Shown here in pieces: positions 2,797 to 22,560 of a DNA stretch of 64,000 nucleotides. Source of the DNA: a virus (taxonomy: Duplodnaviria > Heunggongvirae > Uroviricota > Caudoviricetes); IMG/VR virus record IMGVR_UViG_2778261533_000001, positions 1 to 64,000 of that record; one strand, 5' to 3'. Positions within the stretch are counted from its first letter, which is position 1. Each line of letters begins with the position of its first letter. The translations under genes were made by a program, and so were the position numbers. Under the pieces are notes generated by a model that saw only the letters and a program-made list of their open reading frames with translations, made no database searches and had not been told where the DNA came from.

Positions 2797-5527
<2,731 letters not shown>

Positions 5528-15120: not shown

Positions 15121-16152
15121 CTAATCGCCATCTTCCAGCAGGCGCACCATTGCCCCTGTTTCACTATCCAGGTTACGGATATAGTTCATGACAATATTTA
15201 CGTTGGTCCAGCCACCAGCTTGCATGATCTCCGGTATTGAAACTCCGGCGCGGGCCATATCTCGCGCGGCTCCGACACGGGCACTGTGTCCAGACCAGGC
15301 CAGGTATCTCTGCCCAGAGTCATCCTTAGCGCCGTAAATCAATCGATGAGTTGCTTCAAAAATCCCTTCCAGAGCGCGAGTTGATAGCTGGCTGGTGGCA
15401 GATGGCGCGGCAACACCATTTTTTCTGACACGGCAAAACAGGTAGTTATTCGGATCATCAGCCACACCAGAGACAGAAATCCATCGCTCGACCAGTTTAG
15501 TTACCCCCAGGCTAAGCGCCTTCTCTACACCTGCGGTGCTAACCAGCGTTTTCGTTCTGCCAATATGGATTAACATTCTCCCACCGTCAGTACGTGAGAT
15601 ATCTTTAACCCTGATCCTGGCAATTTCGGCTATACGTAACAGGGTGTTATAAGCAATCCCCAGAAATGCCAGATTACGTATATCCTGGCAGCGATCGCTA
15701 TTTTCCATGAGTGAACGAACCTGGTCGAAATCAGTGCGTTCGAACGCTAGTGCCTGTTTTGCACGTTCACCGGCATCAACGTTTTCTTTTCGGATCCGCC
15801 GCATGACCAGTGAAACAGCATTGCTGTCACTTGGTCGTGGCAGCCCGGACCGACGATGAAGCATGTTTAGCTGGCCCAAATGTTGCTGGATAGTTTTTAC
15901 TGCCAGACCGCGCGCCTGAAGATATAGAAGATAATCGCGAACATCTTCAGGTTCTGCGGGAAACCATTTCCGGTTATTCAATTTGCACCATGCCGCCCAT
16001 GACCGGCAAACGGACAGAAGCATTTTCCAGGTATGCTCAGAAAACGCCTGGCGATCCCTGAACATATCCATCAGGTTCTTGCGAACCTCATCACTCGTTG
16101 CATCGACCGGCAATGCAGGCAAATTTTGGTGTACGGTCAGTAAATTGGACAT
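15121..16152 (-). CDS. cre: Cre site-specific tyrosine recombinase (343 aa)
   Basis: Translation MSNLLTVHQNLPALPVDATSDEVRKNLMDMFRDRQAF...MVRLLEDGD matches Cre as I recall it, including catalytic R-H-R-Y residues. Confidence 0.98.
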   Translation of the reverse strand: MSNLLTVHQNLPALPVDATSDEVRKNLMDMFRDRQAFSEHTWKMLLSVCRSWAAWCKLNNRKWFPAEPEDVRDYLLYLQARGLAVKTIQQHLGQLNMLHRRSGLPRPSDSNAVSLVMRRIRKENVDAGERAKQALAFERTDFDQVRSLMENSDRCQDIRNLAFLGIAYNTLLRIAEIARIRVKDISRTDGGRMLIHIGRTKTLVSTAGVEKALSLGVTKLVERWISVSGVADDPNNYLFCRVRKNGVAAPSATSQLSTRALEGIFEATHRLIYGAKDDSGQRYLAWSGHSARVGAARDMARAGVSIPEIMQAGGWTNVNIVMNYIRNLDSETGAMVRLLEDGD

Positions 16153-17305: not shown

Positions 17306-18157
17306 ATGATAAATTATGTCTACGGCGAACAACTGTACCAGGAGTTCGTCAGCTTCAGGGATCTCTTTCTAAAAAAAGCTGTTGCACGCGCCCAACACGT
17401 TGATACCGCAAGCGACGGTCGTCCTGTACGCCCGGTTGTCGTTCTACCGTTCAAAGAAACGGACAGCATTCAGGCTGAAATTGATAAATGGACTTTAATG
17501 GCGCGGGAACTGGAACAGTACCCAGACCTCAATATCCCAAAGACTATTTTATATCCTGTGCCTAACATCCTTCGCGGTGTGCGTAAGGTTACGACTTATC
17601 AGACAGAAGCTGTGAACAGCGTCAATATGACCGCTGGCCGCATTATTCATCTGATTGATAAGGACATTCGCATCCAAAAAAGCGCGGGGATCAATGAGCA
17701 CAGTGCGAAATACATAGAGAACCTGGAAGCAACAAAAGAGCTAATGAGGCAGTACCCGGAGGATGAAAAATTCCGTATGCGCGTACACGGCTTTAGCGAA
17801 ACAATGCTGCGCGTCCATTACATTTCCAGTAGCCCTAACTACAATGATGGTAAATCAGTTAGTTACCATGTACCGCTGTGTGGCGTGTTTATCTGCGATG
17901 AAACTCTCCGTGATGGAATCATCATCAACGGTGAATTCGAAAAAGCAAAATTTAGCCTTTATGACTCCATAGAACCGATCATCTGCGACCGCTGGCCGCA
18001 AGCAAAAATATATCGCCTGGCAGATATTGAAAATGTAAAAAAACAAATTGCCATCACTCGCGAAGAGAAAAAGGTTAAGTCAGCCGCATCAGTTACGCGC
18101 AGCCGTAAAACCAAGAAGGGGCAGCCAGTAAACGACAACCCCGAAAGCGCGCAATAA
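17306..18157 (+). CDS. c1: C1 repressor of lysogeny (283 aa)
   Basis: 283 aa starting MINYVYGEQLYQEF; GGAGGAGG RBS; flanked by coi and multiple operators. Confidence 0.9.
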   Translation: MINYVYGEQLYQEFVSFRDLFLKKAVARAQHVDTASDGRPVRPVVVLPFKETDSIQAEIDKWTLMARELEQYPDLNIPKTILYPVPNILRGVRKVTTYQTEAVNSVNMTAGRIIHLIDKDIRIQKSAGINEHSAKYIENLEATKELMRQYPEDEKFRMRVHGFSETMLRVHYISSSPNYNDGKSVSYHVPLCGVFICDETLRDGIIINGEFEKAKFSLYDSIEPIICDRWPQAKIYRLADIENVKKQIAITREEKKVKSAASVTRSRKTKKGQPVNDNPESAQ

Positions 18158-18160
18158 ATT

Positions 18161-18185
18161 ATGCCCGGCATCAACCGGGCATTCT
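18161..18185. terminator. hairpin GCCCGGCATCAACCGGGC between convergent c1 and the ant-like gene
   Basis: Inverted repeat read directly. Confidence 0.45.
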
Positions 18186-18189
18186 TCCA

Positions 18190-19305
18190 TTATTCAGCCG
18201 CCACCGGTTTTAACAAACCAGCATCAAGTAGCTTGCGAGTTAACCACTGCTGGCCTTTACCCGTTAATTGAGGCGTCAACCGTATCTGGTAGCCATCTTC
18301 ATCATCCAGCACCACTTCTTTCACCGTGAAATACCCGGCGTTGATGTATTGCTGGAACGGCACATTTTTACGTCCGCCGGACGCAATCAGGATGCCGTTC
18401 TCCCGTAACCAGGCAAACAGCGCGTTTTGCTTAAGTCCAACAACCTTTGCAAAATTTCCAATCAGGATCCCCTTGGCCACTGATACCCGGTCGGCAAAAT
18501 CGACCTTAGGGGCGGCGGCCACCAGCTGCTGATTTAGCTGGTGGGCTTTCTGTTCCAGAAGTTGCTTTTGTTCAGCCAGTTCGGCAGCCAGGCGCAGAGC
18601 TTCAGGAAGCGTCTGGGGGATTGTGACCGGTTGCTGTTCTTTTTGTCGGAAGTAGCTGTCTTCCAGTTTTTCAAAGAATGCCCATGCCTGATCAGTTTCG
18701 AGCATTTTAGCGTGACGGGCAGCGCCGCGTTCTGTCCAGAGAGTGAGTGAGCGGGCTTTGGGTGAGACTGGATTTTGTGAGTAGTTTAAAGCTACCCGCA
18801 AATTTTTCAGCTCATCGCCAATAACCTTGAAAAAGTGCTTCCCTTCAACAAAGCGCACTTTGTTCTCATGATGATTCTGGCGAATACGGATTGTTTCTGT
18901 CCCATACCCTTTTGCAAGAGTCTCGGTTGTCACTACACGCATCCCCTGCCACTCCAGAACGGGAATTTCATCCGGCTGATTTTGAGCAACCACCAGCTCC
19001 GATTTCTGAACTGAAGTTGCATGAATTTTTTCTGATTTAACGTTAGTTGCTTTCATTCTGTGTGCCTCCTTGCGTGCTTCGGCTGCGATGGTTGCGTAAT
19101 TCAGATGCCCCTGTTCGAGCAGGTATTCGCGGATATCAGACAACAGGATACGGTGAACCGCGTTCTTGTCCTTTCTCCGGTAAAGTTGTTTGGTGATCAT
19201 GAAGTAGTTGGCAATAACGCCTGGTATATCTCTGGTGCTGATACAGGCAGTGTGCTGTTCAATTGCCTCAATCATTTCTTCACGGGTGACTAATGACGTT
19301 CTCAT
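18190..19305 (-). CDS. antirepressor-like protein (ORF6N/Bro-N-like domain plus KilA-C/ANT domain, 371 aa)
   Basis: Middle LEWQGMRVVTTETLAKGYGT...VRFVEGKHFFKV resembles ORF6N; C-terminus ADRVSVAKGILIGNFAKVVGLKQNALFAWLRENG resembles KilAC/ANT domain. Confidence 0.7.
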   Translation of the reverse strand: MRTSLVTREEMIEAIEQHTACISTRDIPGVIANYFMITKQLYRRKDKNAVHRILLSDIREYLLEQGHLNYATIAAEARKEAHRMKATNVKSEKIHATSVQKSELVVAQNQPDEIPVLEWQGMRVVTTETLAKGYGTETIRIRQNHHENKVRFVEGKHFFKVIGDELKNLRVALNYSQNPVSPKARSLTLWTERGAARHAKMLETDQAWAFFEKLEDSYFRQKEQQPVTIPQTLPEALRLAAELAEQKQLLEQKAHQLNQQLVAAAPKVDFADRVSVAKGILIGNFAKVVGLKQNALFAWLRENGILIASGGRKNVPFQQYINAGYFTVKEVVLDDEDGYQIRLTPQLTGKGQQWLTRKLLDAGLLKPVAAE

Positions 19306-19523
19306 ACTCCCTCCTGAGCAGAAGCGTTAACAGGGAGGCACCAGTAACTGAGAGAATTGCGCGAATCAGTAGAAAAACGGGCGGAGAAAATGCAAGGTGC
19401 ATCAGGAAGCTGAGGGCGAGCCTCATCTTCTGTCGGTGCAATAACGAAGTGATAGTGACGTTTCTGGCAGGAATAAAAGCGCCAGATAAATTCAGGGTGA
19501 GTTGGGGTAGGGATAGTAGCCAT
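19302..19523 (-). CDS. small ORF translationally coupled to the ant-like gene (icd-like position, 73 aa)
   Basis: Stop overlaps ant-like ATG (ATGA); AAGGAGG RBS; same length as P1 Icd as recalled. Confidence 0.4.
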   Translation of the reverse strand: MATIPTPTHPEFIWRFYSCQKRHYHFVIAPTEDEARPQLPDAPCIFSARFSTDSRNSLSYWCLPVNASAQEGV

Positions 19524-19704
19524 AATGGCAGCCTCCTTTTGCTAACTTAAGGAGCTACCGCGTGAGGTTCCAATCTCAATGGCGGTAGCACTGACTGGGT
19601 TGGAACTACCGGCGCAAAAGGGAACCGGCCTGCCTTTCGGCAGCCCAGCCAGCACTACCATTGATCTCGGAGCTATGTGCTACGTATGGCTGTGCGATGG
19701 CATG

Positions 19705-19860
19705 ACACAAAAAAAGACGCTTTTGGCGTCTGTGTCGCCTTTTGCATTATCCGGGGTTCCAATCCCGGCACCCGTTTTAATGAGGTGCCTGATAAGCATA
19801 AACCGAAAATGCCTCAAGGCGCAAGAGGTCAGGTTCAATGTAACATCGGTAGTTAAAAAA
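19705..19860 (-). ncRNA. candidate c4-like antisense sRNA with intrinsic terminator
   Basis: Between operator at 19864..19880 and hairpin GACGCCAAAAGCGUC plus U7 (about 19705..19730); contains GAUUGGAACC with near-complementary GUUCCAACC in the downstream leader. Confidence 0.3.
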
Positions 19861-19863
19861 CAC

Positions 19864-19880
19864 AATTTATTAGAGCAAAT
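19864..19880. promoter_or_regulatory. C1-operator-like site at pacB 3' end, upstream of the sRNA/icd/ant-like module
   Basis: CAATTTATTAGAGCAAA (15/17 to reverse consensus). Confidence 0.6.
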
Positions 19881-19882
19881 AT

Positions 19883-21367
19883 TCATTCATTAAGCCATGC
19901 CAGAGCTTCATCAACCTGCGCTTCGTCTTCGACGCTAAGCACTTCATCCTGGGGAACATAATCCGCCAGCATAGCGAAACAATATGTATCCCAATGGTCT
20001 GGTGAGTGCAGGTTGAGTTTTTTCTTCATATCCTCCTTACTCATCACCTTCCATTGACCTGCGGAGTTAATCCCTACAGGGATTTTCGACGCTTCCTCAA
20101 TAGTTTCATTACCCTTATCCAGTCTCATACGACCAGATTTTACGGCCTCTGCGGCTTGAACGTTGGCATAAGCACGTTTATCAAAGTACAGGCTCTTATC
20201 TTCACGGCTATGCATCTTTTTACCCCAGCGTATACGCTGTACGGTAATACCATAATACTCGTACATCAGATCCGCCGTTGCTTTACCCAGGCCATCGCCG
20301 TCTATCGCTATGGTGATATTTGGGAATCGCTCAGGATTGCATTCTGCAAAAATTTTGGCGGCAAGCTGCGTTTCTGTAACGTCTGTGTATTCCAGCATTC
20401 GATAGTTGATTACACGGCGTTTATTTCGCTGGCCGGACACCATCATGATATTGATAACGGACTTATCCCGTCCCGTACCACCAGCAACGTCCACACATGC
20501 AAGCCAGCCCCATCCTTTGGCAATCTTGACTTTCCGCCGCGTTGCACGTTCAACCTCATCACGTCCAAGAAGGAAGCCATCCTGTGATTTAGGGAATAGG
20601 CCGCGTACCTTAATCATGTACATAGGGTTATCACGCCCGCCGTACTCCGCCAACTTCATTTTGATAAATGCTGGCGTTACCAGCGGTGATTCCTCACTGT
20701 TAAGCGTGATCGCCGTATAAACGCCATCAGGGTTACCAGGACGCTTGGCCAGTTTATGGTGTGTATCGTAGAAATAGCCGCTTGGGCGTGTAGGCTGTGA
20801 CAGTAATAAGATGCGGTTATCCTGTCCGGTAAGAGCACCGGTGATGATACCGAAAGCTCTATCACTGACACCGGAGGCTTCATCGATAATATACAGAAGA
20901 TGATCTGCGTGTTCACCGGCGAGAGCTTCTTCACTTCCCAGACGAAAGCCCTTCGGTACTACAGTCCATACACCTTTACCAGTAACCTCATAGAAAGCGG
21001 TTTCTGTCAGAACAAAATAATCAGCAAGCCATGGGAAACGGCTGGTGGCAGTAGCCCAGTTTATCTTGATGTACTTGAATATACCGGTCATTACCTGCTG
21101 AATTTTGTTCGCAACGATAATGGCGCGGGCACCGGGATACATGATTATGAACAACATGATCATGATAGAAGTCATGTCTGATTTCCCGGTACCGTGACCA
21201 GACGAAACAGATGTCTTGCTACCCTGTTCCTGCACAGACTCAATAATCAGATCCTGCTGCCAGGTAGGTGTTTTGCCGAACAAAACATCAGCGGCCGCAA
21301 TCCAGTCATAACGATATAGCGCCACCAGCTCGCGCCAACGTGGATCCGTTACGCAACTTCTGGACAT
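19883..21367 (-). CDS. pacB: PacB, terminase large subunit (494 aa)
   Basis: Follows pacA with overlapping stop/start; terminase-like size and position. Confidence 0.85.
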
Positions 21368-22560
21368 TAATCATCATCCCCGTATAGCTTGCGGGTAACT
21401 TCTTCGTCTTCCTCCTCGTCTTCGTCCAGGTCTTGTTCCAGCCATGGGTCGTTTGATACACCTTCAGTATCAACATCTCCATAACCGCCTGTATCAACGA
21501 TATCGGCGATTTCTTCCCTACGTTGCTCAATCCACAATGCAGCATCGGCGCGGCGGTTGGCGGCCCGTTCTCGCGCAACTTTGTCCAGATCTTCAAGAGA
21601 AGGGCCACCGACGGCAGTTTGCCTTTCCTCATCATCGGCATTTGTCTTAGGAGCACGCAGATCGGCTTTGATTTGCTCCAGCATCAGGGGCGGCACTTTC
21701 CCTCCATGCGCCTCGATGAATTCAGCCGCTTCCAGCACTGACCAGTTATTTTCACGCTTTCGTTCGTATGCCAGCTTAACAATGCCAGCTTGCCCCATAG
21801 ATAAAGCGTGCTTTTCCGCCTCCCGGCTTTCTTTTCGATAGTTATTCCGGATGCTGTAAATGGTGTTGATCAGGCTGCTTATCTGCGCGGAACAGCTGTT
21901 TAGCATGCTCGCGATACGGTATTCAGGCGGAGTACCTTCATCATCGTCTTTTTGCTGATCGCGCATTTCCTGCACCAGGCGAATACACGTATCCCTGGCG
22001 TTCTCCAGCATAAGGAGATGAGAAAGAGACTTTTCAAGAAGAGTGGTTTCCAGAACATCGGCCCCGGACCGACGCAACATAGCGCGCGCGGCCTTCCGCG
22101 CTTCAACGTTATCTATCAGGTAATCGCCCGCTTCGAATTCAAAGCGTTCACCATCATCATCCAGGGTGTCGCGTTCCAGGCGATCACGTAAGGTCCGGTG
22201 GGCACGGGTGATCACGTCATGATCATCTGAACGATCATTTATGCGCTTATTTTGGCGCTTCGCATTCTCGACTGCGGCACTGACAACGGCATTAACCCTT
22301 TGTTTTTCCGCTATTTCAGCCGCAATGCGATCACCTGCATGTTGATCATTAGAGTGATCAATGATCATGCTTTTTAGTGGCTTCCTGACTGGCTTATTTG
22401 GCTTGCGGCTGTCCGCTGTCCTGGTGTCTTCTTTGAAGGCACGGAGATAACGACGTGCAGTATTAGGGTTAAGATTAAACTCGGCGGCATACTGTGCGAT
22501 GGTGTAACCACCATCTCGCGCCAGGCGAGCAAAATTCTTCTTGTGATCGTCCCAGGTCAC
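21367..22560 (-). CDS. pacA: PacA, pac-recognising terminase subunit (397 aa)
   Basis: Contains the pac hexamer clusters internally; acidic C-terminal tail; 397 aa as in P1. Confidence 0.85.
22205..22375. other. pac: pac packaging site: two clusters of TGATCA/G hexamers inside pacA
   Basis: GTGATCACGTCATGATCATCTGAACGATCA at about 22209-22245 and TTGATCATTAGAGTGATCAATGATCA at about 22330-22372. Confidence 0.8.

Follow-up and report, generated by a model that had tools for sequence, protein, structure and literature searches.

Bacteriophage P1 serves as a textbook model, and resistance genes are disseminated by phage-plasmids of the P1 type. The immunity region immI of P1 is the closest described counterpart of the element considered here, a 1.73-kb minus-strand insert between pacB and c1 that is very probably a second, complete immI-type immunity operon of a P1-like (Punavirus) phage-plasmid. 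The insert lies in a window of 64,000 nucleotides (nt), positions 1-64,000 of the IMG/VR record IMGVR_UViG_2778261533_000001, whose orientation is reversed with respect to the P1 map; all coordinates below are window positions. In P1 and P7, a C1 operator stands at the 5' end of immI and is followed by a leader and the C4 antisense RNA, with 7-nt a sites and 8-nt b sites both upstream and downstream of C4, and the second b site (b2) falls on the Shine-Dalgarno sequence of icd. The 73-amino-acid (aa) Icd reading frame runs through an ATGA overlap into ant1, which has an internal ant2 start at codon 84 and encodes a KilAC C-terminus. The P1 copy is located between sim and the kilA-repL genes, its leader belongs to the Rfam family c4-a1b1, and the scheme of its control is taken here from a published account (PMC8198154). 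Icd of P1 is reported to be a division inhibitor that targets FtsZ (PMC11897509). A second described relative is the isrK-orf45-anrP locus of the lambdoid prophage Gifsy-1 (Hershko-Shalev et al. 2016, PMC4825925), where an RNA of the IsrK family, partly read through at a terminator of its own, precedes a processed RNA, STnc1160, that is complementary to IsrK, and a small open reading frame (ORF), orf45, that is coupled to an antirepressor-like gene. The short IsrK activates this small ORF, and the output of the locus is the AntQ antiterminator (PMC4825925). In P4 immunity (CI RNA; seqA, seqB, seqC), an RNA processed from the leader likewise pairs with repeated sites on either side of itself; it works by terminating transcription prematurely, and the genes under its control are replication genes rather than an antirepressor.

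In the window, the insert is flanked by pacB (19883-21367, minus strand, stop codon 19885-19883) and c1 (17306-18157, plus strand, convergent with the genes of the insert), and homology to P1 breaks exactly at both stops. Because only 24 bp lie between the stops of pacB and of the convergent c1 in reference P1, the segment is an insertion relative to P1, and the identical P1 gene of other function that the first-pass annotation had considered as a possible objection is absent from that interval. The parts follow the same order as in P1 and P7 immI, namely a C1-operator-like site, an IsrK-family leader with its terminator, a C4 RNA, an icd-like gene and an ant1-like gene. An immI-like architecture (operator, antisense RNA, icd, ant) at this non-canonical place had been proposed in the first-pass annotation, and the comparison with annotated P1 immI bears it out feature by feature. 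The operator-like 17-mer TTTGCTCTAATAAATTG (19879-19863, minus strand), which the same annotation had placed directly after the pacB stop, begins 4 nt past that stop and shares 15 of its 17 positions with the consensus for the C1 operators of P1. It aligns with the annotated Oc4 of P1, is the positional equivalent of P1 Oc4/Op51 and is kept in 34 of 35 pacB-c1 copies. C1-operator-like sites with at most two mismatches occur nine times in the window, against 0.04 expected by chance. As a putative binding site of C1, the 17-mer would supply the 5' C1 operator by which a P1-type immI is recognised. The other C1-operator-like 17-mers of the window (eight sites with zero to two mismatches) are at 1798, 16648, 16731, 31493, 37259, 47313, 47324 and 51623; an overlapping inverted pair occupies 47313-47340. 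A candidate promoter overlapped by the operator (19837-19865, minus strand; -35 TTGTGT, 17-nt spacer, -10 TACATT) was placed by alignment to the annotated P1 promoters as the equivalent of P2c4/P51a, and is conserved among copies. A candidate constitutive promoter (19789-19824, minus strand) reads either TTGAGG-17-TATCAG, equivalent to P1 P1c4/P51b, or the overlapping TTGCGC-18-TATGCT; its hexamers are all invariant or nearly so in the 35 copies, and an RNA initiated from either version would start at about 19788-19782.

The RNA components of the operon were identified by an Rfam scan of the whole window (gathering scores of 50 for isrK, RF01394, and 45 for C4, RF01695), which gave two adjacent minus-strand matches within the insert, isrK followed by C4. 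The isrK match (19788-19710, 62.4 bits, E = 5.7e-11, model positions 1-77) ends in an intrinsic terminator (19731-19708, minus strand), AGACGCCAAAAGCGTCT plus a T7 run, with the stem at 19731-19715 and the U7 tract reaching 19708. This terminator lies about 155 nt downstream of the operator-like 17-mer, close to the spacing of roughly 150 nt reported in the first-pass annotation. The terminator-ended RNA had there been taken for the c4-like antisense RNA itself; given the Rfam isrK match at 19788-19710, this candidate is instead an IsrK-family leader that carries target-like sites, and the real C4 had been overlooked. The C4 homologue (19665-19578, minus strand, RF01695, 76.7 bits, E = 3e-13) is a full-length match, with a mature form of about 19659-19581 by alignment to the annotated P1 c4 and a predicted fold energy of -46.4 kcal/mol. 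Two recognition elements, b' (CCUUUUGC, 19621-19614, minus strand) in the 12-nt loop of C4 hairpin 2 and a' (GUUCCAA, 19606-19600, minus strand) in the single-stranded joint before the closing stem, are unpaired in both the Rfam-aligned structure and the predicted fold. Each has two perfect complements, one upstream and one downstream of C4. On the same strand, the leader contains a1 (UUGGAAC, 19762-19756) in an 8-nt hairpin loop and b1 (GCAAAAGG, 19745-19738), which ends 7 nt before the terminator stem, and the icd leader contains a2 (UUGGAAC, 19573-19567), again in a hairpin loop, and b2 (GCAAAAGG, 19542-19535), which overlaps the icd Shine-Dalgarno sequence AAGGAGG (19538-19532, minus strand, 8 nt before the icd ATG). 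The four occurrences of these 7-nt and 8-nt complementarities have a conserved order, and their lengths, order and spacing agree with the annotation of a1, b1, a2 and b2 in P1. The complementary motifs of the first-pass annotation are therefore real as sequences (GAUUGGAACC at 19764-19755 and 19575-19566, GUUCCAACC at 19606-19598), while their assignment to RNAs did not hold: GUUCCAACC, thought to lie in the leader near the ribosome-binding site of the small ORF, sits 75-85 nt upstream of its start codon, inside C4 as the a' element. The targets near that ribosome-binding site are a2 and b2, and the whole b/b' determinant had gone unnoticed.

In contrast to this common plan, the leader and the recognition sequences of the window differ from those of P1. 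At the gathering score, c4-a1b1 (RF03163) had no match in the window, whereas P1 and one P1-type locus score 51 and 55.5 bits, and the C4 sequence and its recognition elements are unrelated (UUGACAG/GUUAGUG in P1, UUGGAAC/GCAAAAGG in the window). A 39-aa ORF (19542-19661, minus strand) coincides with the C4 gene and matches the Pfam family Phage_ASH (PF10554) with 32.4 bits against a cut-off of 26; its equivalent in the plasmid NZ_CP114131.1 is annotated as 'ash family protein' by PGAP. Since the compensatory changes in a' and b' alter residues of this ORF, the Phage_ASH family is probably, at least in part, the translation of an RNA gene. Two further ORFs, one on the plus strand (19579-19893) and one on the minus strand (19680-19886), also span the RNA part of the insert; neither has a family match, and both are presumably non-coding.

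Evidence that these sites pair came from their covariation among relatives. An exact 26-nt stretch of the C4 stem, searched for in IMG/VR, was found at 70 loci; a set of 72 sequences sharing the C4 backbone was compared, the RNA region was aligned over 243 columns, and formal counts were made on 24 distinct sequences. The isrK-C4 loci occur in three contexts: between pacB and c1 as in the window (about 35 loci), at the canonical immI position before a P1-type icd-ant1-kilA-repL (8-10 loci), and in non-P1 phages (24 loci), where CCTACGCCTGCAAGCAA is found instead of the C1 operator. In the non-P1 loci (for example L037, about 563-1984, and L008, C4 at about 1997), a 71-aa Icd-like ORF is ATGA-coupled to a protein of 299-313 aa. 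The RNA region has a mean identity of about 96%, and against this background the variable columns form conspicuous paired clusters at the six sites. There are two a-types (UUGGAAC and UUGAGAC) and two b-types (GCAAAAGG and GUCAAAGG), all four combinations are found among the 72 sequences, and the three sites of each determinant agree in 70 of them; the two exceptions (L044 and L050) have a mismatch at a1 only. Between C4 and a2/b2, 100% of 360 cells are paired, 32 of them compensatory; between C4 and a1/b1, 99.4% are paired, with 30 compensatory cells. None of 500 shuffles matched the observed pairing for either pair of sites, and when the partner was slid by one to three columns pairing fell to 29-58% and compensatory cells disappeared. 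The complementarity, for which chance had been named in the first-pass annotation as a possible source, is thus beyond that level both by the shuffles and by the compensatory changes. As the sites are interleaved (a1, b1, b', a', a2, b2), the four combinations cannot come from two haplotypes by simple linkage, and judged from these alignments selection must have favoured either compensatory changes or repeated exchanges. The pattern supports genuine pairing of C4 with both the upstream a1/b1 and the downstream a2/b2. Taken together, the Rfam E-values, the four ordered complementarities, the covariation and the presence of 1.73 kb where P1 has 24 bp exclude a chance origin of the RNA features and of their complementarity. 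A comparable pattern is seen at canonical P1-type immI loci (L074-L127, about 1.7 kb upstream of kilA), with the a-types UUGACAG and UUAGCAG and the four b-types GUUAGUG, GAUUGUG, ACUUACG and ACGAAUG; of 33 sequences, only L088, with a mismatched b2, departs from matching a1/a'/a2 and b1/b'/b2, and these specificity classes outnumber the classical P1/P7 pair.

With the parts, their homology and their covarying complementarity demonstrated, a mode of action can be proposed by analogy with P1 and Gifsy-1. Transcription would begin just past the C1 operator, through which C1 would repress one of the promoters, and the majority of transcripts would end at the intrinsic terminator to give an IsrK-family RNA of about 80 nt. 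Transcripts that read through would contain C4, then icd and ant, and C4 would be excised from them as in P1, presumably by RNase P. Its a' and b' would pair with a2 and b2 in the icd leader and, as b2 covers the Shine-Dalgarno sequence, icd would then not be translated. The ant1 start lies within the icd stop and ant1 would need translation of icd, so that no antirepressor would be made under C4. Where C4 is scarce or of the wrong specificity, for example on infection of a cell that lacks that C4 type, Icd and Ant1/Ant2 would be made, and Ant would then antagonise the C1 repressor. The a1/b1 sites of the IsrK-like RNA would bind the same C4 elements, most likely as a competitor or decoy that tunes the amount of free C4; such a sponge role is favoured in view of the trans-activation by short IsrK and the complementary processed RNA of Gifsy-1.

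The resemblance to Gifsy-1 can be taken further. A positive switch of the Gifsy-1 type, in which the IsrK-like RNA would open an otherwise silent read-through mRNA in trans, either by titrating C4 or by remodelling the leader, with C4 as a passive partner, has a real though less than even chance, and it is a layer able to coexist with C4 control of a second immI. It would fit the assignment of the window leader to isrK rather than to the c4-a1b1 of P1, the coupled small ORF activated by the short RNA and the complementary STnc1160 in Gifsy-1 (PMC4825925), and the match of a1/b1 to C4 retained in 70 of the 72 sequences. Contrary to this, the Gifsy-1 locus lacks a C1 operator and has orf45 in the place of icd, pairing there was mapped to a helix of about 30 nt as opposed to two short kissing sites here, and accumulation of, and activation by, the short RNA are putative in the present case. 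In the window, a small ORF coupled to an antirepressor-type gene is present, with pacB upstream where antQ would be in Gifsy-1. The 7 nt between the end of b1 and the terminator stem also bring P4 to mind, where the CI RNA acts through seqA and seqC, a mechanism that the IsrK authors consider for STnc1160 as well (PMC4825925). Transcriptional immunity of this kind, with C4 binding nascent a1/b1 to enforce termination at the IsrK terminator and control exerted through read-through, appears unlikely here: the terminator is already predicted to fold stably without C4, and the exact position of b2 on the Shine-Dalgarno sequence together with its perfect covariation argues for translational control as in P1. 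An effect of C4 on termination was ranked below the competitor or sponge role of the IsrK-like RNA.

The two proteins encoded downstream of the RNAs extend the similarity to immI. The first-pass annotation had described a 73-aa ORF coupled by ATGA to a 371-aa protein with ORF6N and KilA-C domains, and both coordinates and Pfam matches agree with it. The small ORF, correctly read there as the icd equivalent, extends from 19523 to 19302 on the minus strand, has 77% aa identity to P1 Icd and matches NCBIfam NF033153 (phage_ICD_like, 47 bits); its start codon (19523-19521) is GTG rather than ATG in 16 of the 35 pacB-c1 copies. The ant1-like gene (19305-18190, minus strand) overlaps the icd stop by the ATGA, and its product is 55% identical overall to P1 Ant1, with the N-terminal and C-terminal thirds conserved, in agreement with its earlier designation as the ant equivalent. 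Both proteins have the Ant1-specific N-terminus, at about 67% identity, and the KilAC C-terminus, at about 90%. Pfam found two domains above cut-off, ORF6N (PF10543, residues 116-201, 72.8 bits) and ANT/KilAC (PF03374, residues 259-360, 111.1 bits), while P1 Ant1 matched PF03374 only; an NCBIfam search of the 371-aa protein returned no family. The same codon as in P1 ant2, codon 84, provides a nested ant2-like ATG (19056-19054, minus strand) preceded by AAGGAGG (19071-19065), which would yield a product of 288 aa, and this internal Shine-Dalgarno sequence and start are kept in 23 of 24 copies. Both icd and ant are intact in each of the 17 complete copies, and the median ratios of non-synonymous to synonymous substitution (dN/dS) are 0.08 for icd and 0.19 for ant, which demonstrates that both genes are under purifying selection. 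The module appears to be functional as far as its sequences tell. An inactive relic of duplication or recombination between P1-like elements is very improbable: although the plasmid copy NZ_CP114131.1 is annotated with a truncated antirepressor coding sequence only and recombinants between two modules exist (L044, see below), such a relic would hardly retain intact ORFs in 17 of 17 complete copies with dN/dS of 0.08-0.19, conserved regulatory elements and compensatory evolution at six sites.

Several observations weigh against the interpretation of the insert as a complete second immI operon. A consensus scan between 19789 and 19880 flagged no sigma-70 promoter, so the promoters are inferred only from alignment to the weak annotated promoters of P1. 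When C4 was paired as a whole molecule with the leader or with the IsrK-like RNA, the computed duplex energies did not improve on about 10% of the shuffles. Site-level complementarity and covariation were used in place of this test, since duplexfold takes no account of the intramolecular folding that leaves only a' and b' exposed. The window ends before the canonical immI position, so that its module may be either a second or a relocated one. The central third of the Ant-like protein, which holds the ORF6N domain, is unrelated to the P1 Ant centre, and this region (residues 84-230; 18616-19056, minus strand) is the most variable part of the module, with several alleles and 74-99% nt identity against 92-98% in the flanks. 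In view of the different and variable centre, C1 is only a putative target of the 371-aa protein. An Ant with a P1-like centre is carried by L038. The operon might be regulated as proposed and yet encode an Ant-like protein that targets another repressor, for instance that of a co-resident prophage, or that acts as a KilA-like growth inhibitor. The replacement of the P1 Ant central region by several ORF6N alleles would be in keeping with this, as would the different proteins of about 300 aa driven by the same RNA cassette in non-P1 phages. This alternative is nevertheless held to be improbable, given the N- and C-terminal parts shared with P1 Ant, the conserved nesting of Ant1 and Ant2 and the position of the module under a C1 operator and next to c1.

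The module is widespread among relatives of P1. Of the PLSDB plasmids, 558 contain pacB and 321 contain the full module at a coverage of at least 80%, about 58% of the P1-like plasmids; the same pacB-c1 insertion is present in the phages RCS47, JL22 and vB_EcoM-673R5 and in pTZ20_1P. These copies share locus and gene order at 89-96% nt identity, and the copy of the window, whose identity to the retrieved copies does not exceed 97.7%, is an allele of its own. An 'ant' gene is annotated at the locus in RCS47, where the a-type and the b-type are both the other ones relative to the window, and the products assigned by PGAP are an Icd-like protein and a KilAC antirepressor. The insertion between pacB and c1 has been reported as 'two short hypothetical orfs and an antirepressor', as in RCS47 (Venturini et al. 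2019, PMC6906374), a second c4-icd region was noted in a paper on a D6-like plasmid (PMC6799933), and in the Stx phage record LC710661 the two RNAs are annotated next to each other as 'C4 antisense RNA | isrK'. A description of the RNA anatomy or specificity types at the pacB-c1 locus was not found in the records or literature covered, which did not include the D6 genome paper (Gilcrease & Casjens 2018). Cassettes of isrK and C4 with RNA 90-97% identical and the same a and b types occur at the canonical immI of other P1-like phages, in D6 and in Stx and other prophages, where they are likewise followed by icd and an antirepressor-type gene; they differ in genomic position and effector protein, and the non-P1 copies lack the C1 operator. 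The element is therefore a new allele of a widespread, already annotated module built from known families, and not a new kind of system.

Evidence for two modules in one genome comes from three contigs that hold the pacB-c1 module together with a canonical P1-type immI whose C4 a and b elements are unrelated (L053/L077, L011/L100 and L010/L126). In these relatives the pacB-c1 module is apparently an additional, orthogonal lock, and because all three contigs carry both modules, a relocated sole immI was set aside as the general case, though the window genome itself may be such a case. The canonical-immI genes sim, c4, kilA and repL were searched for across the window and none was found, and the P1 sim, kilA and repL DNA gave no other match. 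The upper window end is at pmgG, about 5 kb short of the position where P1 has sim, c4, icd, ant, kilA and repL, and the absence of a canonical immI from the window is for this reason uninformative. In the record IMGVR_UViG_3300045988_157941 (L034, L050, L120), isrK-C4 cassettes of the same a'/b' type lie both beside pacB and at the canonical position, and the mismatched canonical a1 of L050 suggests gene conversion between the two modules. L044 (IMGVR_UViG_2778261639_000014, about 5051-5291 plus flanks) has pacB directly before isrK-C4, with a P1-type icd, ant1, kilA and repL after it; it is demonstrably a recombinant of the pacB-c1 module and a canonical immI, and its a1 no longer matches a' and a2. 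The module (18190-19882) has a synonymous divergence of about 0.3 between copies, while c1 (17306-18157) is only 1-2% different in the same loci and pacB (19883-20600) falls, from locus to locus, at either about 99% or about 87% identity. To judge from these divergences, the module appears to have been exchanged independently of its flanks.

Among the other features of the region, a GC-rich hairpin found by the terminator scan, ATGCCCGGTTGATGCCGGGCAT (18161-18182), lies between the ant stop and the convergent c1 stop and is likely a bidirectional terminator. On the minus strand, pacA (21367-22560) adjoins pacB, and cre is at 15121-16152. Three minus-strand tRNA genes (44791-44863, 46508-46580 and 46586-46658) are as expected of a P1-like genome. 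In two of the related loci, Rfam matches to the sok antitoxin RNA of about 114 bits (L016, 4072-4246; L126, 4839-5013), a few kb from immI/repL, suggest a hok/sok-type addiction module there.

In conclusion, reference P1 lacks the module and about 58% of the P1-like plasmids in PLSDB have it, so immunity in nature usually involves a more elaborate circuit than that of the textbooks, and the module is useful for understanding natural P1 immunity. The principle of C4 control is unchanged; it is extended to a second locus and to more specificity classes, and the covariation connects the a1/b1 leader of C4 systems with the Salmonella family of IsrK RNAs. It is conceivable, although this is put forward only tentatively, that most natural P1-like phage-plasmids hold two independent C4-locked antirepressor operons whose combinatorial recognition (2 a-types x 2 b-types in the family of the window, 2 x 4 in the P1-type family) forms a heteroimmunity code. 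If so, the extra module would be a counter-immunity device, and an incoming phage would be checked only by a prophage that supplies both matching C4 keys, with the IsrK-like RNA and its a1/b1 sites as a sponge that sets the threshold. Such a code would govern which P1-like elements, many of them with resistance genes, superinfect or induce each other.

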